From: a virus | Taxonomy: Duplodnaviria; Heunggongvirae; Uroviricota; Caudoviricetes | Virus record (IMG/VR): IMGVR_UViG_2585427768_000003 | Location: 1 to 26,251 of that record | Reading direction: 5' to 3' (one strand) | Length of the DNA stretch: 26,251 nucleotides | In this document: piece by piece, positions 1,459 through 13,084 of the stretch | How positions within the stretch are numbered: the stretch's first letter is position 1 | Layout: each line of letters starts with the position of its first letter | Position numbers and translations under genes: made by a program | Notes under the pieces: generated by a model | What the model was told of the DNA's origin: nothing | Seen by the model: only the letters and a program-made list of their open reading frames with translations | Databases searched by the model: none

Positions 1459-2622
1459 TTACACATCATTAGTACCTTCCTTATTTTTTGACTGGGACAA
1501 ATTTGGGACCGATGGGTTCAGGATCGAGTCTATTTGCCGTGCGTGTTCGGTAAGGTGATTAGGTGCAAGGTGAGCATATCGACGAACCATTTCGATAGAC
1601 TCCCAGCCTCCCATTTCCTGTAACACTGACAACGGGACTCCGGCTTGAACCAGCCAACTTGCCCAGGTGTGTCTCAAGTCGTGAAATCTGAAATCATCAA
1701 TATCAGCCCGTCTCAGCGCCGCTTTCCAGGCTGTGTTTGCGTCATACCGCATCTTCCTTACTGTTGGCGCTTTCGTTCCGTCTGGTTTGGTACAGCTTTC
1801 CTTGTACACAAATACCCAACGGTGATGATTCCCGATTTGTTTTTTCAATACGCGACATGCAGTATCATTCAGCGCAACGCCAATTGCGCGGTTTGATTTA
1901 CTCTCTTCCGGGTTTATCCATGCCACCCGGCGCTGCATATCTATTTGTTGCCATTCAAGGTTGATGATGTTCGAGCGTCTTAAACCTGTTGCCAGTGCAA
2001 ATTCAACAACAGACTTTAATGGCTCCGGACATTCATCAATCAGCCTTTGTGCTTCATGGGGCTCCAGCCAGCGGATCCGTTTATTCTTTGGTTGAGGCAC
2101 TTTAATAATTGGTGCCTTATCCAGCATTTTCCATTCACGCTCTGCGGCTCTTAGTAGGGCCTTTATAAATGAAAGATGCGTAGCCTTCGTTGCAACGGAC
2201 GCTGGTTTTGGCGTGTATTCTGGAACAGGTTTCCCTTTTTTTCTGCATGCTTCTGCCCTGAGTCTCCAGTTTTCCTCATGACGCCGGTTCGTCATTTTCT
2301 GCATTGCTGAATAAATTTTTGATTCAGTAATGTCTCTTAGTTGCATTCCTGCGAAATGTTGAAGCCAGAATCCGATCCGGCTTTTGTCATCGTCCAGTGA
2401 TTTTTTATGTGCTTTCTCTTCAAGCCACCTGACACACGCTTCCTCGAACGTTATATCAGGTATTTCACCAAGTTTGCTGACCCGCCATGCTTCAGCCTTT
2501 AGCTTGTCATGGAGTTCTGTCGCCTGCCTTTTGTCCTTTGTTCCAAGAGACTGTTTAAATCTTTTACCGTTCGGCAATGTGAAACTGGCGTACCATATTT
2601 CACCTCTGCGGAAGAGTGACAT
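1459..2622 (-). CDS. int: tyrosine site-specific integrase (P22-like)
   Basis: 387 aa; C-terminal [10 protein letters not shown] and RRYAHL motifs typical of tyrosine recombinases; N-terminus matches my recall of P22 Int; ATG at 2622 with GAGGA Shine-Dalgarno; adjacent to tRNA att site. Confidence 0.9.
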
Positions 2623-5060: not shown

Positions 5061-5423
5061 TTAATGACCTGCTGCGCGGAGTTTTCCGTCAGGTTCACCG
5101 GCAAGAGTCAGTAATTGTCCCTGGTCTTCCTGCAGAATAGTCAGGCGACCACCGCGATTGACATACATCGGCGTTTCGGTGGTGTCTTCTTCGGAAATTT
5201 TCCCGCGGTTAGTCGGGCGAACATATGAGAGTTTGTGTTTGATTTTCACACGGTTCTCATCAAATGGTTCGATTTCCAGGTTGAGTGAGACCTTACCTTT
5301 GGTTTTCGTGTTCATCACACCGGAAGCGACTTCACTGAGAACTGCGCCGATTTTGGTTTCAAATACGCCGCCGTCCAGCTCCCCAATAAATGCCTGCACA
5401 TCAGTACTGCGTTCGCTAGCCAT
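5061..5423 (-). CDS. hypothetical early phage protein (YfdP-like)
   Basis: 120 aa from ATG at 5423 (MASERSTDVQ...) preceded by AGGAG at 7-nt spacing; the ORF-track extension to 5741 runs through GC-rich structured noncoding DNA and is rejected. Confidence 0.65.
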   Translation of the reverse strand: MASERSTDVQAFIGELDGGVFETKIGAVLSEVASGVMNTKTKGKVSLNLEIEPFDENRVKIKHKLSYVRPTNRGKISEEDTTETPMYVNRGGRLTILQEDQGQLLTLAGEPDGKLRAAGH

Positions 5424-5471
5424 TTTTCTGCTCCTAATCATATCGACCCTGCAAGGTCGGTTGGTTTCTCC

Positions 5472-5560
5472 ACAAAACAGAGAAGAACACCTGCGGTGGC
5501 AGCCGCCCGGATGGATTGGGTTATGAGCCCGTCGTCCGGTGATGTTCTTCTCTGTTTTGT
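5472..5560. repeat. 18-bp perfect inverted repeat (ACAAAACAGAGAAGAACA / TGTTCTTCTCTGTTTTGT) with 53-nt GC-rich spacer
   Basis: arms 5472..5489 and 5543..5560 are exact reverse complements; sits in a ~440-bp noncoding interval upstream of the YfdP-like gene. Confidence 0.8.
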
Positions 5561-5861
5561 AAAAAGAGCGGTACCAGCCGGAAGCAAGTGTACAAACTGG
5601 TACCGCGAGGACTACACACAGCATAAAGTTGTGGTGCCGGGTGCCTCCCGGTGCCTGGCGAAAGTTGCACACCAGGCGGGTGGGTATCCACAGAAGGTCG
5701 ACTGTCAGCCTCAACCTTAACCCGCGTGCGCTGAGCCGCATTCACCACAACGCTAAGGATTCTCTCTGGTTGAAAATACTTAGCTGTTATGTGCCTGTCT
5801 TTTCACCACTTCAGGCTCGGTGGTATCTTGGTGTTTTCATATAGCCAAGAAGGAAATAGTT

Positions 5862-6478: not shown

Positions 6479-7105
6479 TTAGAGTTCGTATTGAACTCCT
6501 TTGACTACACCAATGATAAGGCAATTACCATTGATAGGGATGTTGGGATACCGAGGATTTAATGGCACTAAAAACTTTTGAGGGCCATCGATGACTAATT
6601 TTTTTACTGTAGCTTCGTTTGTTCCATCAAGTCGAGCGATGACTATTTTTCCATGACGAGGTTCTGCATCTGGATCTACAATCACTGTTGCGCCTTCTGG
6701 TATTGTTGGGAGGCCATTAGGGTTAGTCATGGAGTCACCTTTAACCTCTAATGCAAATGAGTTATCACCAATCTTTAATGATGTATCTACCCACTTGTCC
6801 ACTTCACTAAACACTTCTGCTGCCCTGCACTCAGTAAACTGCCCAGCCTGAACCCACGATATTACAGGAACTCTGCGCATGTTTGTGACGAGTTTGCCTT
6901 CAAACTCAGCACCATAAAGAATGTAATCTATTGACGTATTGAAGAACTTCGCTAATTTCGAAAGTGCCTCCCCACCAGGGGTATTGATGTCTTTCTCCCA
7001 GTACCCCACAGCAACGTCGCTTACTCCACAAAATTTACCCAATTCTTTCTGGGACGTTCCGGTAACTCTTCTCAGAGCTTTTATACGCTGACCAACCGTT
7101 TCCAT
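6479..7105 (-). CDS. CI-like prophage repressor (HTH_XRE N-terminus, S24 LexA-type peptidase C-terminus)
   Basis: 208 aa; N-terminal HTH (QKELGKFCGVSDVAVGYWEKD), C-terminal GDSM serine motif and downstream Lys; ATG at 7105 has no Shine-Dalgarno, compatible with a leaderless PRM-type transcript. Confidence 0.88.
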   Translation of the reverse strand: METVGQRIKALRRVTGTSQKELGKFCGVSDVAVGYWEKDINTPGGEALSKLAKFFNTSIDYILYGAEFEGKLVTNMRRVPVISWVQAGQFTECRAAEVFSEVDKWVDTSLKIGDNSFALEVKGDSMTNPNGLPTIPEGATVIVDPDAEPRHGKIVIARLDGTNEATVKKLVIDGPQKFLVPLNPRYPNIPINGNCLIIGVVKGVQYEL

Positions 7106-7127
7106 AGGAGCACCATTTCTTGAATTG

Positions 7128-7192
7128 CTAAGTAATCTTAGTTTTTATTGACCAAAGATAGATTTGTAATTAGCATCTAATAAAACTTAGTT
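7128..7192. promoter_or_regulatory. OR-like operators and putative PR promoter (-35 TTGACC 7148..7153, -10 TAGCAT 7171..7176)
   Basis: dyads CTAAG-TAAT-CTTAG (7128..7141), ATTAG-CAT-CTAAT (7169..7181), CTAAT-AAAA-CTTAG (7177..7190) in the 97-bp interval between divergent cI and cro. Confidence 0.5.
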
Positions 7193-7202
7193 TGGAGGGC
7201 GT

Positions 7203-7403
7203 ATGACAACTGACGATATCGAAAGCTACTTCGGCAGTATTGAGAAAGTTGCTGCTTTTTTCGGCATAACAACTGAAGCCGTTTATCAGTGGCGAAACCG
7301 TCCGGGCCAGTTAATTCCAAAAGGACGTGCAGCAGAAGCTGCATATAGAACTTGCGGACGGTTGCCATTTAAACCTGAGCTTTATGAAAAATCTAATGGA
7401 TAA
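7203..7403 (+). CDS. Cro-like small HTH regulator
   Basis: 66 aa, divergent from cI, ATG at 7203 preceded by GGAGGG; HTH-like segment IEKVAAFFGITTEAVYQWRNR. Confidence 0.75.
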   Translation: MTTDDIESYFGSIEKVAAFFGITTEAVYQWRNRPGQLIPKGRAAEAAYRTCGRLPFKPELYEKSNG

Positions 7404-7992
7404 ATCGATTAACAGAAACCACAGAACGATGAGGCTAACCGTGGGTAAGCATCACTGGAAAGTAGAAAAACAGCCTGAGTGGTACGTGAAAGCTGTCAGA
7501 AAAACTATCGCAGCGTTGCCGGGTGGTTACGCTGAAGCAGCTGACTGGCTGGATGTAACAGAAAACGCATTATTTAACCGTCTTCGTGCCGATGGCGATC
7601 AGATTTTCCCGCTGGGATGGGCAATGATTTTGCAACGTGCTGGTGGAACTCACTTCATTGCTGACGCTGTGGCGCAGTCTGCAAATGGCGTCTTTGTGTC
7701 TCTTCCTGACGTCGAGGATGTGGACAACGCCGATATTAACCAGCGCCTGCTGGAAGTCATTGAACAGATTGGCAGTTATTCCAGACAGATTCGTTCGGCA
7801 ATCGAAGACGGTGTGGTGGAACCGCATGAGAAGACAGCAATTAACGACGAGCTGTATCTCTCAATTTCGAAGCTGCAGGAGCATGCAGCACTGGTCTACA
7901 AAATCTTTTGCATTTCAGAAAGTAATGACGCCCGCGAGTGTGCAGCTCCGGGCGCCGTGGCGTGTCGTGACTGTGGAGAAACTAACGCATGA
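7384..7992 (+). CDS. CII-like / YdaT-family-like phage regulatory protein
   Basis: ORF downstream of cro in the CII position; start uncertain (ATG at 7384, 7396 or 7429, all weak Shine-Dalgarno; the track start 7327 overlaps cro and is rejected); family from recall only. Confidence 0.45.
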
Positions 7993-8327
7993 ACAGTTTA
8001 ACAACACACTACCGTCGCTCGCAACTGATTGCGCTTCCTGTACCGGGTGGAAAAGCGAAGGTGGAGTATTGCTATGCAGTTAATGTACCAGGTGACAGGG
8101 AAATTGTAACCCACAGCTTTGCTGAGTGGGCTGTGGGTGATTTCAACCGGCAGAAGGAGACAGTCCTTTGCGACAAGTTAACCGCTGGTTCAAAGATCAC
8201 TACGGAGTGCCCGTCAGAGTCATTCGTTGGGAGCCGGAAACACAACGAGTTATCTACCTCCGCGAAGGCTATGAGCATGAGTGCTTCAGCCCGCTCGAAC
8301 AGTTTCGTCGTAAATTCAGGGAAATAG
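7989..8327 (+). CDS. hypothetical protein, possibly frameshifted (alternative frame open 8141..8347)
   Basis: ATG at 7989 overlaps upstream stop (ATGA); C-terminal part in this frame is Ser/Ala-rich low complexity while the -1 frame from 8141 reads protein-like ([36 protein letters not shown]...). Confidence 0.4.
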
Positions 8328-8336
8328 AGGTCGGTC

Positions 8337-9278
8337 ATGAGCACTAAATTAACCGGCTATGTATGGGATGGTTGCGCTGCATCAGGCATGAAATTATCCA
8401 GCGTGGCAATTATGGCCCGCCTGGCTGATTTCAGTAATGACGAAGGTGTGTGCTGGCCATCAATTGAAACTATTGCCCGTCAGATTGGCGCGGGGATGAG
8501 TACCGTCAGGACGGCTATCGCACGGCTGGAAGCAGAAGGCTGGTTAACACGTAAGGCGCGTCGCCAGGGTAACCGCAATGCGTCGAATGTTTATCAGCTT
8601 AACGTTGCGAAGCTTCAGGCAGCGGCATTTTCTCAACTGTCAGATTCTGACCCGTCAAAATCTGACGCATCAAAATCTGACCCGTCAAAATTTGATGCGT
8701 CGAAATCTGGCAAAAAAGCGGGTTTTCACCCGTCAGAATCTGGCGGGGATCCGTCAGTAAAATCAAAACATGATCCGTCAGATAAAAAACCTTCTCGTCC
8801 GGACGCTTCGCAACCGGACACGCAGACGGATGAACAGGATTTTTTAACTCGCCATCCTGATGCGGTTGTATTCAGCCCTAAAAAGCGCCAGTGGGGAACG
8901 CAGGATGATTTGACCTGCGCACAGTGGCTCTGGAAAAAAATCATCGCCCTGTACGAGCAAGCCGCCGAATGTGACGGCGAGGTGGTTCGTCCCAAAGAAC
9001 CGAACTGGACAGCCTGGGCAAACGAAATTCGCCTGATGTGTGTGCAGGATGGTCGTACTCACAAACAAATCTGCGAGATGTACAGCCGCGTCAGCCGCGA
9101 TCCGTTCTGGTGCCGTAACGTGCTCAGCCCGTCGAAGTTGCGGGAAAAATGGGATGAGCTTTCCCTGCGCTTATCACCGTCCGTCAGCACGTACACCGAA
9201 AAACGCGAAGACCCGTACTTCAAAGCCAGTTACGACAACGTGGACTACAGCCAGATCCCGGCAGGATTCAGGGGGTGA
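8337..9278 (+). CDS. phage replication initiation protein (N-terminal HTH, C-terminal DnaT-like domain)
   Basis: 313 aa; ATG at 8337 with AGAGG upstream; N-terminus typical of replication-initiator HTH proteins; C-terminus ends ...DYSQIPAGFRG, resembling the DnaT C-terminal ...SQIPPGFRG; central linker encoded by an iteron array. Confidence 0.75.
   Translation: MSTKLTGYVWDGCAASGMKLSSVAIMARLADFSNDEGVCWPSIETIARQIGAGMSTVRTAIARLEAEGWLTRKARRQGNRNASNVYQLNVAKLQAAAFSQLSDSDPSKSDASKSDPSKFDASKSGKKAGFHPSESGGDPSVKSKHDPSDKKPSRPDASQPDTQTDEQDFLTRHPDAVVFSPKKRQWGTQDDLTCAQWLWKKIIALYEQAAECDGEVVRPKEPNWTAWANEIRLMCVQDGRTHKQICEMYSRVSRDPFWCRNVLSPSKLREKWDELSLRLSPSVSTYTEKREDPYFKASYDNVDYSQIPAGFRG
8639..8744 (+). repeat. 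iteron array (putative origin) inside the replication gene: 13-bp GTCARAATCTGAC-like repeats
   Basis: five copies at exact 15-bp phasing starting 8639, 8654, 8669, 8684, 8699 and a sixth at 8732; first copy GTCAGATTCTGAC is palindromic; degenerate copies to ~8780 followed by A-rich tract. Confidence 0.7.
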
Positions 9279-9280
9279 TC

Positions 9281-9769
9281 ATGAGTCTTTTGAATGACGT
9301 TCAGAAATTCATTGAAGCCCATCCGGGGTGTACTTCCGGAGACATTGCAGATGCTTTTGCTGGTTACTCACGGCAGCGCGTTCTGCAGTCAGCAAGCAAG
9401 TTACGTCAGAGTGGGCGTGTGGCTCACCGTTGTGAAGGGGATACACGCAGACATTTCCCGCGCCTGACTGAGAGAGCGCAGGAGCCGGAACCACAACCAG
9501 TTCGTGAAACCAGACCTGTGCGCAATTTCTATGTCGGCACTAACGACCCCCGGGTGATTTTGTGCCTGACCCGCCAGGCTGAAGAACTGGAGTCCAGGGG
9601 CTTATTCCGTCGAGCTGCAACGGTGTGGATGGAGGCATTCCGTGAAAGCCACTCCCAGCCAGAACGAAACAATTTTCTGGCGCATCGTGAGCGGTGCTTA
9701 CGGAAAAGCAGCAAGCGCGCTGCATCGGGTGAAGAGTGGTATCTGTCAGGGAATTACGTGGGGGCTTAA
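9281..9769 (+). CDS. hypothetical protein with putative winged-helix N-terminus
   Basis: 162 aa from ATG at 9281 (track start 9275 is GTG); upstream stop overlaps; weak resemblance to wHTH regulators, function not established. Confidence 0.55.
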   Translation: MSLLNDVQKFIEAHPGCTSGDIADAFAGYSRQRVLQSASKLRQSGRVAHRCEGDTRRHFPRLTERAQEPEPQPVRETRPVRNFYVGTNDPRVILCLTRQAEELESRGLFRRAATVWMEAFRESHSQPERNNFLAHRERCLRKSSKRAASGEEWYLSGNYVGA

Positions 9770-10422
9770 TGAGTAATAAATATTGCCAGGCGCTGGTGGA
9801 GCTGCGAAACAAACCAGCCCATGAACTGAAGGAAGTGGGCGATCAGTGGCGCACGCCGGACAACATTTTCTGGGGAATTAACACCCTGTTTGGCCCGTTT
9901 GTTCTGGATCTGTTCACTGATGGTGATAACGCCAAATGTGCCGCTTATTACACTGCGGAAGACAACGCGCTGGCGCATGACTGGTCTGAACGTCTTGCGG
10001 AGCTTAAAGGTGCTGCCTTTGGTAATCCCCCGTACAGCCGCGCCAGTCAGCATGAGGGGCAATACATCACCGGCATGCGTTACATCATGAAACATGCCAG
10101 TGCTATGCGTGATAAAGGCGGGCGCTATGTTTTCCTGATCAAAGCTGCCACCAGCGAAGTTTGGTGGCCGGAAGATGCAGACCATATTGCTTTTATTCGC
10201 GGGCGTATTGGTTTTGAACTGCCAGCCTGGTTTATCCCGAAGGATGAGAAGCAGGTTCCGACAGGAGCTTTCTTCGCTGGTGCTATTGCTGTTTTCGACA
10301 AGACCTGGAAGGGACCGGCAATCAGCTACATCGGGCGCGATGAACTTGAGGCATGTGGTGAGGCCTTTCTGGCGCAGGTTCGCCAGCAGGCAGAAAAACT
10401 GGTCAGGGAGATGGTGGCATGA
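9769..10422 (+). CDS. phage DNA N6-adenine methyltransferase (Dam-like, orphan)
   Basis: 217 aa from ATG at 9769 (TAATG overlap with upstream stop); catalytic NPPY motif in AAFGNPPYS; no adjacent restriction endonuclease gene. Confidence 0.85.
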   Translation: MSNKYCQALVELRNKPAHELKEVGDQWRTPDNIFWGINTLFGPFVLDLFTDGDNAKCAAYYTAEDNALAHDWSERLAELKGAAFGNPPYSRASQHEGQYITGMRYIMKHASAMRDKGGRYVFLIKAATSEVWWPEDADHIAFIRGRIGFELPAWFIPKDEKQVPTGAFFAGAIAVFDKTWKGPAISYIGRDELEACGEAFLAQVRQQAEKLVREMVA

Positions 10423-10868
10423 CGACGTTAACTCAATGCCAGCAGCAGGTGCTGGATATGCTGATTTCTTATCAGAAAGAACGTGGCTTCCCGCCAACCA
10501 ATCAGGAGGTGGCAACCATGCTGGGATATCAGACCGGACGCCTGGCACGTTCGATTGGTTACATGGTACCCAGAGCCAGTAAACATCGCCCTGGTTTTAT
10601 GGCACGTATAGCCCCTAACCAGCGTAATGGAGAGGGAAACCGCCGTATCACCGGTGATTTTTATCCGGCTTTTTTGTTCTATGGCGTGAGGCGAGGGGCA
10701 AAGCGTCGTCGCAGCCATCATCGTGGTGCATCCGGTGGCAGCGGCTGGCGACTGGCTCCACGTAATAACTTCATGGTGGAAACGCTTGAAAAGAACCGCA
10801 GCTGGACACGCTATTTTCTGGCGCGGGAATTGCGTAAATCACTGAAGCCGGAGCGACGACGCAGATGA
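10419..10868 (+). CDS. protein with LexA-like N-terminal DNA-binding domain and highly basic C-terminal half; possible chimeric junction ORF
   Basis: N-terminus MTTLTQCQQQVLDMLISYQKERGFPPTNQEVATMLGYQ resembles the LexA N-terminal wHTH; C-terminal half Arg/Gly-rich with no recognisable fold; ATGA overlaps at both ends. Confidence 0.5.
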   Translation: MTTLTQCQQQVLDMLISYQKERGFPPTNQEVATMLGYQTGRLARSIGYMVPRASKHRPGFMARIAPNQRNGEGNRRITGDFYPAFLFYGVRRGAKRRRSHHRGASGGSGWRLAPRNNFMVETLEKNRSWTRYFLARELRKSLKPERRRR

Positions 10869-11425
10869 AACTGACGCCTGTTATTGCTGCGCTGCGTGCC
10901 CGCTGCCCGTATTTTGAAAACCGGGTGGCAGGCGCGGCACAGTTCAAAAATCTGCCGGAGGTCGGAAAGTTGAGACTCCCGGCGGCGTATGTGGTACCGG
11001 GTGATGACTCTCCGGGAGAAAACAAAAGCCAGACCGACTACTGGCAGGAGCTGAAAGAGGGCTTCTCCGTGGTTGTCATACTGAGTAACGGGCGTGATGA
11101 GCGCGGTCAGTTTGCCTCGTATGATGTGGTGGACGATGTCCGGCAGATGCTCTTTAAGGCCCTGCTGGGCTGGAACCCGGAAGCGTGCGGTAACCCGATT
11201 ACCTATGACGGCGGCACGCTGCTGGATCTGAATCGTCATGAGCTGATTTATCAGTTCGATTTTTCGGTCATCAGCGAGCTGACCGAAGACGATCCCCGCC
11301 AGCAGGATGAGCTGAACAATCTGGATGAACTGCGAACGCTGGCGATTGATGTTGATTATCTCGATCCCGGTAACGGGCCTGACGGCGATATCGAACATCA
11401 CACCGAAATAACCCTTCCTTCCTGA
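10865..11425 (+). CDS. putative virion / tail-completion protein (Mu gp37-like position)
   Basis: 186-aa acidic protein; ATGA overlap with upstream gene; immediately precedes the sheath gene cluster; the overlapping antisense ORF 10811..11401 is rejected. Confidence 0.5.
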   Translation: MKLTPVIAALRARCPYFENRVAGAAQFKNLPEVGKLRLPAAYVVPGDDSPGENKSQTDYWQELKEGFSVVVILSNGRDERGQFASYDVVDDVRQMLFKALLGWNPEACGNPITYDGGTLLDLNRHELIYQFDFSVISELTEDDPRQQDELNNLDELRTLAIDVDYLDPGNGPDGDIEHHTEITLPS

Positions 11426-11433
11426 GAATCTTC

Positions 11434-11604
11434 ATGTTTGTGAAACCTGTTAAAGGGCGGTCAGTGCCTGACCCTGCCCGCGGTGACCTTTTGCCCGCCG
11501 AAGGGCGAAATGTTGACGAGAACAACTACTGGCTGCGCCGTGAAGCAGCGGGTGATATCCGGCGCGTGAATAAAAAGGTGAACACCGATGACGATAAGCT
11601 TTAA
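11434..11604 (+). CDS. small conserved protein preceding tail sheath (DUF2635-like)
   Basis: 56-aa ORF MFVKPVKGRSVPDPARGDLLPAEGRNVDENNYWLRR... not in the ORF track (under 60 aa); family from recall; 3' end overlaps the sheath start. Confidence 0.5.
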   Translation: MFVKPVKGRSVPDPARGDLLPAEGRNVDENNYWLRREAAGDIRRVNKKVNTDDDKL

Positions 11605-13084
11605 CACCATTCCGTCGAATACGCTGGTTCCGCTGTTTTATGCGGAAATGGATAACTCGGCGGCGAATACTGCACAGGACAGCGGGGCATCGTTGCTGAT
11701 TGGTCACGCCAATAACGGTGCAGAGATTGTTGCCAACAGTCTGGTGCTGATGCCGTCGGCAGACTATGCACGCCAGATTTGTGGTGCGGGAAGTCAGCTG
11801 GCGCGTATGGTCGAGGCTTATCGCCAGACCGACCCGTTTGGCGAGCTGTATGTGATTGCCGTTCCGGAAGCCACAGGCGCGGCGGCAACGGTTACGCTGA
11901 CGGTGACCGGAGCAGCAACCGAAACCGGCACGGTGAATGTGTATGTGGGACGTACCCGCGTGCAGGCACCGGTGACCAACGGCGATAACGTCACGACGAT
12001 TGCCAGCAGTATCAAAGATGCCATCAATGCCGTTCCGGCCCTGCCGTTTACGGCCTCATCTTCGGCAGGCGTGGTCACACTGACCGCGCGTCATAAGGGG
12101 CTTTGCGGGAATGAAATTCCTGTCAGCCTCAATTACTACGGCTTTGGTGGGGGCGAAGTGCTGCCAGCGGGTGTACAGATTGCCGTGGCGACGGGGACCG
12201 CCGGAACGGGCGCTCCGGTTCTCACCGGTGCGGTGGCTGCAATGGCGGATGAGCCGTTTGATTATATCGGTCTGCCGTTCAACGACACGGCCTCCGTTAA
12301 CACGCTGGTGACCGAGATGAACGATACCAGCGGTCGCTGGAGCTATGCGCGTCAGCTGTATGGTCATGTGTATACGGCAAAGATCGGCACGCTGTCAGAA
12401 CTGGTGACCGCAGGTGACCAGTTTAACCAGCAGCACATCACCCTGGCGGGGTACGAAAAAGAGACCCAGACGCCTGCCGACGAGCTGGCGGCAAGCCGTA
12501 CCGCCCGCGCAGCGGTGTTTATCCGCAACGATCCGGCACGTCCCACGCAGACCGGTGAGCTGGTGGGTATGCTGCCTGCGCCGAAGGGGAAACGGTTCAC
12601 GATGACCGAGCAGCAGACCCTGCTGTCTCATGGCGTGGCAACGGCGTATGTCGAAAGCGGGGTGCTGCGCATTCAGCGTGATGTCACCACGTACAGGAAA
12701 AATGCTTACGGGGTTGCGGATAACAGCTACCTCGACAGCGAGACGCTGCATACCAGTGCGTATGTACTGCGCAAACTGAAATCCGTCATTACCAGTAAGT
12801 ACGGGCGTCACAAGCTTGCCTGTGACGGTACCCGCTTTGGTCCCGGTCAGGCGATTGTCACCCCGGCGGTGATCAAAGGGGAACTGCTGGCAACCTACCG
12901 TCAGCTCGAGCGTGCGGGGATCGTGGAAAACTACGAACTGTTCAAGCAGTACCTGGTTGTGGAGCGTGATGCCAGCGATCCGAACCGCCTGAACACGCTG
13001 TTCCCGCCTGACTATGTTAACCAGTTGCGTGTCTTTGCCGTGGTTAACCAGTTCCGTCTTCAGTATTCAGAGGAGTCTGCATAA
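11588..13084 (+). CDS. contractile tail sheath protein (Mu L-like)
   Basis: 498 aa; size, position and N-terminus consistent with Mu-type sheath; followed by tube, chaperone and tape-measure genes. Confidence 0.85.
   Translation: MTISFNTIPSNTLVPLFYAEMDNSAANTAQDSGASLLIGHANNGAEIVANSLVLMPSADYARQICGAGSQLARMVEAYRQTDPFGELYVIAVPEATGAAATVTLTVTGAATETGTVNVYVGRTRVQAPVTNGDNVTTIASSIKDAINAVPALPFTASSSAGVVTLTARHKGLCGNEIPVSLNYYGFGGGEVLPAGVQIAVATGTAGTGAPVLTGAVAAMADEPFDYIGLPFNDTASVNTLVTEMNDTSGRWSYARQLYGHVYTAKIGTLSELVTAGDQFNQQHITLAGYEKETQTPADELAASRTARAAVFIRNDPARPTQTGELVGMLPAPKGKRFTMTEQQTLLSHGVATAYVESGVLRIQRDVTTYRKNAYGVADNSYLDSETLHTSAYVLRKLKSVITSKYGRHKLACDGTRFGPGQAIVTPAVIKGELLATYRQLERAGIVENYELFKQYLVVERDASDPNRLNTLFPPDYVNQLRVFAVVNQFRLQYSEESA

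Follow-up and report, generated by a model that had tools for sequence, protein, structure and literature searches.

The stretch of phage DNA considered here, 26,251 bp in length and referred to below as the window, comprises positions 1 to 26,251 of IMG/VR record IMGVR_UViG_2585427768_000003. It carries a lambdoid early region made up of a cI-like repressor, an open reading frame (ORF) in the cro position, a CII/CP76-like gene, a 112-amino-acid (aa) ORF, the replication initiator gene (rep), a PerC-like gene and Dam. The subject of this report is the initiator gene, and in particular an array of short palindromic repeats (iterons) inside it which, together with the DNA to its right (8639-8816), is probably the phage replication origin, organised like ori-lambda inside gene O.

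The initiator gene and its repeat array

The DNA of the initiator gene is 98-99.7% identical to genes labelled 'replication protein O' or 'primosomal protein' in the Shigella phages SfII and SfIV and in several phages of E. coli, such as vB_EcoM-689R6, and the full-length protein is a match to PHROG 391 ('replication initiation O-like', E=1e-135). An initial annotation, made by reading the window alone, had placed a helix-turn-helix (HTH) at the N-terminus, and residues 23-70 do match Pfam HTH_36 (PF13730; E=4e-11, 42.9 bits against a gathering cut-off of 25), with weaker profile matches to GntR, MarR and DnaD_N.

The repeats were counted by scanning both strands of the window for the pattern GTCARAATCTGAC, with up to two mismatches allowed and 100 shuffles as the null. 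On the plus strand the pattern is found at 8639, 8654, 8669, 8684, 8699 and 8732 and nowhere else in the window, and the nine matches on both strands compare with 1.16 expected, a count reached in 0/100 shuffles. Tandem Repeats Finder called a period of 15 (4.3 copies, 8646-8709) together with a period of 30, and a repeat search gave successive spacings of 15, 15, 15, 15 and 33. Six palindromic units of 13 bp, five of them phased at 15 bp, thus span 106 bp (8639-8744), each with the architecture GTCA-N5-TGAC; the first, GTCAGA-T-TCTGAC, is perfectly inverted over 6 bp on either side of a single central base. At 8762-8774 there is a further, degenerate palindromic copy, ATCAAAACATGAT, and GATCCGTCAG is present twice, at 8747 and 8771. 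The initial annotation had described this array as 13-bp repeats at 15-bp steps with a sixth at 8732, a perfectly palindromic first copy and degenerate copies beyond, and had held that the repeats encode a linker inside the initiator gene. All of this is borne out, as the repeats are in frame in the ORF at 8337-9278, occupying nt 302-407 of its 942 nt between the N- and C-terminal domains, where they encode SDSDPSKSDASKSDPSKFDASKS, a peptide that includes SDSDPSKSDASKSDPSKFDASKSGKK. Between iterons 5 and 6, the minus strand (8719-8732) has a terminator-like hairpin, CGGGTGAAAACCCG, with a run of T after it, as a consensus match only.

Table 1. Coordinates of the initiator gene, its domains, the repeats and neighbouring early genes in the window
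Feature	Position	Strand	Basis
Replication initiator gene, 313 aa, SfII/SfIV-type prophage	8337..9278	+	Nucleotide identity, PHROG 391
N-terminal winged-helix DNA-binding domain, aa 1-100, presumed iteron reader	8337..8636	+	Pfam HTH_36
Iteron 1, GTCAGATTCTGAC	8639..8651	.	Perfect 6-bp arms
Iteron 2, GTCAAAATCTGAC	8654..8666	.	Pattern match
Iteron 3, ATCAAAATCTGAC	8669..8681	.	Pattern match and codon conservation
Iteron 4, GTCAAAATTTGAT	8684..8696	.	Pattern match and codon conservation
Iteron 5, GTCGAAATCTGGC, degenerate	8699..8711	.	Pattern match
Iteron 6, GTCAGAATCTGGC	8732..8744	.	Within the region's most conserved block
Conserved right arm, GGGGATCCGTCAGTAAAATCAAAACATGATCCGTCAGATAAAAAACC..., with two GATC sites and degenerate iteron 8762-8774	8745..8816	.	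Candidate unwinding region
C-terminal globular domain, homologous to the lambda O C-terminal (P-binding) domain	8850..9167	+	Sequence homology
C-terminal tail, SQIPAGFRG	9249..9275	+	8/9 positions identical to the end of E. coli DnaT
cI-like repressor	6479-7105	-	Lambdoid early region
Short cro-position ORF	7203-7403		SfIV gp38 synteny only

The repeat DNA in related prophages

Related genes were drawn from 79 loci in one-genome-per-species bacterial assemblies, each encoding a homologue of the N-terminal 100 residues. The initial annotation had named homologous linkers without periodicity in their DNA as one observation that would count against an origin, and this was checked: in over 60 prophages belonging to some 25 genera of Enterobacterales, with N-terminal domains 72-100% identical to that of the window, the motif is kept at constant offsets of 302, 317, 332, 347, 362 and 395 nt from the start codon. 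Three of the loci (L015, L037 and L042; 82-88% identity) are enterobacterial prophage initiators in assemblies labelled Vagococcus, Chryseobacterium and Martelella, and are probably contaminant contigs.

Codon choice was compared over 67 distinct aligned sequences, as the fraction of residues identical to those of the window that also use the window's codon. This fraction is 42% (2072/4932) in the N-terminal domain (codons 2-97), 81% (890/1095) in the iteron region (codons 102-125), 85% in iteron 6 (codons 132-136) and 84% beyond the repeats (codons 137-165). The six-fold degenerate serine of the repeats is encoded by TCA in 66/66, 62/62 and 65/66 loci, and the iteron 2 codons TCA, AAA and TCT are retained in 66/66, 49/49 and 52/53 of the loci that share the residue. 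Likewise, the majority base at third codon positions has a frequency of about 0.5 over 8339-8636 as against 0.7-0.89 over 8639-8816, reaching 0.79-0.89 in the right arm, and the columns at 8728-8760 are at least 85-95% invariant. The constrained DNA runs about 70 bp past the peptide repeat, through GGGGATCCGTCAGTAAAATCAAAACATGATCCGTCAGATAAAAAACC. At the protein level, variation is greatest at P106, P116, A111 and A121, whose codons fall on the 2-bp spacers that separate the iterons, with a residue conservation of 0.15 at P106 and 0.25 at P116. Because synonymous sites are conserved in the repeats while the spacer-encoded residues vary, the pattern is the opposite of one set by the protein; judged from these alignments, selection is on the repeat DNA and not merely on the peptide. 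The case cleanly separates selection at the DNA level from selection at the peptide level within an in-frame repeat.

The repeats are also, as far as gene comparisons tell, inherited together with the N-terminal winged-helix domain. The Citrobacter phage phiNP shares the N-terminal domain of the window and all six repeats, identically spaced, joined to a different C-terminal domain (Phg_2220_C), and over 60 loci keep the motif while carrying several different C-terminal domains. Conversely, mEp460_4F5 has the C-terminal domain of the window (with a junction near 8779) but a different N-terminal domain, and in the corresponding position has a different repeat, 23 nt long and present in four copies spaced 23-24 bp apart, which cannot be a peptide repeat because of the 23-bp spacing. 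SfV orf39 combines a third N-terminal domain with a third repeat set. Where the N-terminal domain has diverged, so have the sites: a Trabulsiella prophage (L072, 69% identity) has a symmetrically altered palindrome, TTCAGAWTCYGAA, and phiP27 (60% identity) has mixed GTCA/TTCA left half-sites with TGAA right half-sites, both with the 15-bp phasing kept. More distant HTH_36 initiators (34-41% identity) have arrays of their own, located 280-400 nt from the start of the gene and as a rule spaced at 22 bp. The gp15 protein of phi80 was not among a spread sample of 40 of the 195 phage records listed by the N-terminal domain search.

The C-terminal domain, its tail and the helicase-loader genes

The C-terminus had been described in the initial annotation as DnaT-like, a description that holds for the last nine residues but not for the domain that precedes them. 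The domain is homologous to that of lambda O (31% identity over 216 residues, E=7e-26), with long identical runs in common (WGT..DLT.A.W, PN...WAN.IRLM..DGR.H and FW..NVLSP.KLR.KW), and an AlphaFold2 model of residues 160-313 has a mean predicted local distance difference test score (pLDDT) of 84, in which the helical core exceeds 90 and the tail is of low confidence (51-62). The search of the C-terminus against DnaT profiles that the annotation had proposed gave nothing: Pfam DnaT (PF17948) does not match the initiator even at E up to 1, whereas E. coli DnaT, as a control, matches it at 3.7e-21. Nor was DnaT found by an NCBIfam search of the initiator, by a PDB sequence search (MarR-type HTH proteins only), or by a search for homologues of the C-terminal domain alone, which returned mostly partial sequences; a Foldseek search of this domain against the PDB gave nothing significant. 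The three-helix domain with which DnaT binds single-stranded DNA was not found in the initiator, and by BLASTP the initiator resembles DnaT in the last nine residues only, with no counterpart of its N-terminal oligomerisation/PriB-binding domain and acidic linker. A DnaT-like C-terminal domain is therefore ruled out, and the domain is of the lambda-O type.

The tail itself is a different matter. The initiator ends in SQIPAGFRG and E. coli DnaT in SQIPPGFRG, in both cases at the extreme C-terminus, and SQIPxGFRG is the only part common to the two proteins. The ending IP[PR]GFRG is almost invariant among the DnaT orthologues retrieved. In initiators of the Phg_2220_C type the likeness to DnaT is more extensive, covering residues 128-179 (E=5e-8). 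A rarer tail, ...PDK.IP.GFRGAK, occurs both in DnaT orthologues (P0248, P0293, P0299 and P0346) and in Enterobacter prophage initiators (L031 and L035), which hints that the phage tails may track, or be copied from, host dnaT variants. The tail of DnaT has been reviewed as 20 residues long and highly flexible, and it was considered unsettled whether DnaT directly recruits DnaB or DnaB-DnaC (PMC5778457). According to passages of a 2026 electron cryomicroscopy (cryo-EM) study of the preprimosome, the mechanism by which DnaT hands over to DnaB-DnaC is still unexplained, and in those passages, as in term searches of the study, no mention of the flexible C-terminal tail was found (PMC13377028).

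Genes for helicase loading were sought in phmmer searches of all six-frame ORFs of the window and of every locus; the queries were DnaC from E. coli, lambda P, and both DnaC and the helicase from phiP27. In agreement with the initial annotation, which had found no P/DnaC-type loader, there was no match to DnaC, lambda P or the phage helicase in the window, nor in the SfIV, SfV, phiNP and 4F5 loci. The genes downstream of rep in the window are PerC-like and Dam, and in intact SfIV no helicase or loader lies between rep and Q. Matches were confined to L047 and L084 (lambda P), L051, L053 and L083 (DnaC-like), L081 (helicase) and phiP27 (DnaC and helicase), and none of the initiators accompanied by a loader ends in GFR[GSTC]. 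When the count is restricted to loci where the initiator is complete and 1 kb or more of sequence follows it, a loader is nearby in 0/42 with a GFR tail and in 5/28 with other tails (Fisher one-sided p=0.008, uncorrected for shared ancestry). Two relatives retain the N-terminal domain and iterons of the window with another tail, followed by lambda P in L047 and by a DnaC-like ATPase in L051, so that tail and loader change together on a constant origin module; in phiP27, variant iterons are followed by DnaC and helicase. The tail thus stands on loader-less initiators with unrelated C-terminal domains and is absent where P or DnaC is encoded, which makes it a candidate recruitment element; this distribution suggests that the GFR tail may recruit the host's helicase-loading machinery.

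Particular tails also seem to go with particular loaders. Initiators accompanied by DnaC-like genes (L051 and L083) have acidic/aromatic ends (...GGTDDDFI and ...EDIDAMPF) that recall the C-terminal tip of SSB, and one accompanied by lambda P ends in ...PEGWDQTL. A third class of about 22 loci, including L018, L024, L041 and L057, has the same N-terminal domain and iterons in proteins of 335-350 aa that end in WKE.QR... or WQQAAEQAA... and lack both a GFR tail and a loader gene nearby. Of these, L018 (WKE type) matches Phg_2220_C and has a C-terminal extension of about 90 residues, and L057 (WQQ type) has no Phg_2220_C match.

A broader possibility, which is put forward tentatively and is on balance doubtful, is that IPxGFRG is a portable peptide that recruits helicase-loading machinery (DnaB-DnaC or PriA/PriB), grafted repeatedly onto at least three initiator C-terminal domains (the lambda-O, Phg_2220_C and SfV types) in place of a P, DnaC or DnaB gene. 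The combination of domains has a precedent in DopC, an O-like protein whose N-terminus is HTH_36 and which bears a DnaT motif at its C-terminal end (PMC5509034). The DopC/DopE system described there differs in being chromosomal, with DopE as a P-like partner, and its authors state that they found no iterons in the DopC gene (PMC5509034), whereas the window has iterons and no P-like partner.

A candidate replication origin

In the proposed mechanism, dimers of the N-terminal winged-helix domain would bind the 13-bp iterons through the half-sites GTCA...TGAC, at six sites of which five are phased at 15 bp. The resulting nucleoprotein complex would destabilise the adjacent conserved, A+T-richer segment with two GATC sites (about 8745-8800), and the C-terminal part, a lambda-O-type helical domain with a flexible tail ending in IPAGFRG, would bring in the host replicative helicase. 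Since the phages encode no analogue of P, DnaC or DnaB, the tail may be supposed to share its partner with the tail of DnaT, whether by direct contact with DnaB-DnaC or through PriA/PriB in the restart primosome.

The right arm is the candidate unwinding region of this mechanism. The lowest G+C content of the gene (35%) is found at 8760-8799, immediately beyond the repeats on the right, in DNA whose synonymous sites are conserved. The GATC sites at 8747-8750 and 8771-8774, each within a copy of GATCCGTCAG, are conserved, and the gene for a Dam-family methylase (9736-10422) is found a short way downstream of rep. Most related loci have an N6-adenine methylase within about 1.5 kb downstream of rep (32 ORFs in a Dam-type cluster and eight in an MT-A70 cluster). 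The conserved pair of GATC sites and the nearby Dam gene together suggest that the origin may be under methylation control, by analogy with P1 oriR or oriC; in P1 oriR, GATC sites lie in the unwinding region and replication depends on Dam methylation. DNA homology of the block at 8728-8760 to the segment right of the A+T-rich region of lambda was also looked for, and as only the heptamer CGTCAGA is shared no claim is made for it.

The initial annotation had drawn a parallel with lambda, and this stands: in both phages the iterons are intragenic, some 300-430 nt beyond the initiator's start codon (348-432 nt into O for the annotated lambda iterons) and between the N- and C-terminal domains. In both, the iterons are dyad-symmetric, the N-terminal domain and iterons swap as one module independently of the C-terminal domain, and the C-terminal domains are homologous. 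The A+T-richer segment to the right of the repeats in the window is a candidate counterpart of the unwinding segment of lambda. There are differences, however. The N-terminal domain in the window is HTH_36, whereas lambda O matches Phage_rep_O (PF04492) only and the two are not aligned by BLASTP. The lambda sites are 18 bp long at 20-24 bp intervals, as against 13 bp at 15-bp phasing and in-frame pentapeptide repeats in the window, where moreover the A+T-rich element is weaker and there is no P gene. Lambda O ends in ...DWIYGVDL, while the initiator of the window ends in the DnaT-type tail. The theta plasmid origins P1 oriR, F, R6K and pSC101 similarly combine a winged-helix initiator with direct repeats beside an A+T-rich region. 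Plasmid iterons are 17-22 bp long at about 22-bp phasing, intergenic and usually accompanied by DnaA boxes; the sites in the window, by contrast, are 13 bp long at 15-bp spacing and intragenic, and no DnaA box (TTWTNCACA) is found in the 26-kb window. The putative origin is therefore lambda-style, a new instance of an arrangement already known, and its unusual part is the DnaT-type tail together with the absence of a phage loader. The origin interpretation offered by the initial annotation has good comparative support from the repeats, the synonymous constraint, their co-inheritance with the N-terminal domain and the lambda parallel, and its DnaT-like domain is corrected to a lambda-O-type domain that ends in a DnaT-type tail.

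Several observations count against this account. A 15-bp centre-to-centre spacing is tight for winged-helix dimers when compared with 20-24 bp in lambda and 22 bp in related genes, so that partial or alternate occupancy of the sites, or a functional unit of 30 bp, is possible. The A+T-rich element is weak, with a minimum of 35% G+C over 40 bp, and far less A+T-rich than that of lambda. The prophage in the window is a deletion derivative, and phage replication may therefore never take place from this copy. The literature yielded no paper in which the origin of an SfII/SfIV/SfV-type phage is defined, the SfIV genome paper going no further than naming a 'replication module'. As regards the tail, the Fisher test ignores phylogenetic relatedness, and 23/28 of the initiators without a GFR tail also have no recognisable loader, so that the tail is not the sole loader-free solution. 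Moreover, the partner of the tail is uncertain even for DnaT itself, according to the review and the passages of the cryo-EM study cited above (PMC5778457, PMC13377028).

It is also conceivable, although improbable, that the origin is elsewhere and that the sites bind the initiator or another regulator for control of the gene or of copy number, as an autoregulatory roadblock or by handcuffing. Co-variation with the N-terminal domain ties the protein to the sites but says nothing of the outcome of binding, and plasmid iterons also serve control. On the other hand, the motif does not recur elsewhere in the window or close to its early promoters, a scan for tandem repeats there reported no second array of this kind, the matching intragenic iterons of lambda are the origin, and the conserved A+T-richer flank resembles the unwinding element expected of one. 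The parallel with lambda and the lack of another candidate array thus make a purely regulatory role less likely.

There is a still smaller chance that the constraint arises from a hairpin in RNA or single-stranded DNA (in messenger or antisense RNA, or in single-strand initiation and primosome assembly), or from the overlapping ORFs at 8578-8760 (+) and 8599-8766 (-). The region folds at -53.2 kcal/mol (z=-4.9 against shuffles), the minus-strand frame is open for at least 45 codons in 66/66 loci, and the symmetric changes in the variant palindromes would preserve hairpins as well as binding sites. However, both the strong folding and the open alternative frames follow from tandem palindromes with a 15-nt period, and the alternative frames are fully open in just 7/66 and 28/66 loci. 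No Rfam family matches at the repeats, and no promoter-like site was predicted within 8300-9400, internal to the gene or around it. Folding of the array as a single strand could matter once the DNA is unwound, and such a role would fit the origin model.

The suggestion that the repeats are a slippage by-product of a low-complexity SDxSK pentapeptide linker, in DNA of no function itself, draws on a 15-bp period that is a multiple of three and on a clean pentapeptide repeat in a predicted flexible linker, but is hardly tenable when synonymous positions are about twice as conserved in the repeats as in the folded N-terminal domain, the variable residues are those of the spacers, the arrays of related genes have periods of 22-23 bp that are incapable of giving peptide repeats and the constraint outlasts the peptide repeat; the conservation of synonymous sites largely rules out a repeat that matters through its peptide alone.

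The surroundings of the initiator gene are those of an incomplete prophage. Positions 9700-10523 of the window match the dam/repressor region of SfII and 10524-11700 match SfII 6753-7929 (tail completion and sheath). As these matches are joined near 10523/10524, about 16 kb are missing, with rusA, Q and the lysis, terminase, portal and head genes, and in the ORF at 10419-10868 a tail-completion protein is fused to 39 residues from a repressor-like one. At the left end, a threonine transfer RNA gene (tRNA-Thr, anticodon CGT, 1369-1444), presumably the prophage attachment site, lies immediately upstream of a 387-aa ORF (1459-2622, minus strand) that is probably the integrase, from its position beside an SfIV-type excisionase region. 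Within the leftward early region, 5559-5781 on the minus strand is an Rfam match to the gammaproteobacterial small RNA STnc100 (48.5 bits against a gathering threshold of 47) that overlaps the 5' part of the ORF at 5061-5741. Directly upstream of rep, the 112-aa ORF (7989-8327, plus strand) belongs to PHROG 1170, with function unassigned and without a Pfam match; an ORF of equal length (339 nt) stands in this position in SfIV and mEp460_4F5 as well, in the latter despite a different rep N-terminal domain.

Related genes carry only the labels 'helix-turn-helix domain-containing protein', 'replication protein O' and 'primosomal protein', and the segment described here gives a testable origin candidate for the serotype-converting Shigella phages of the SfII/SfIV/SfV type and for many related prophages. 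If the proposed role of the tail is true, temperate phages of Enterobacterales would fire their origins with host proteins alone, and their initiators would provide a natural minimal system for the element that hands over from the restart primosome to DnaB-DnaC.

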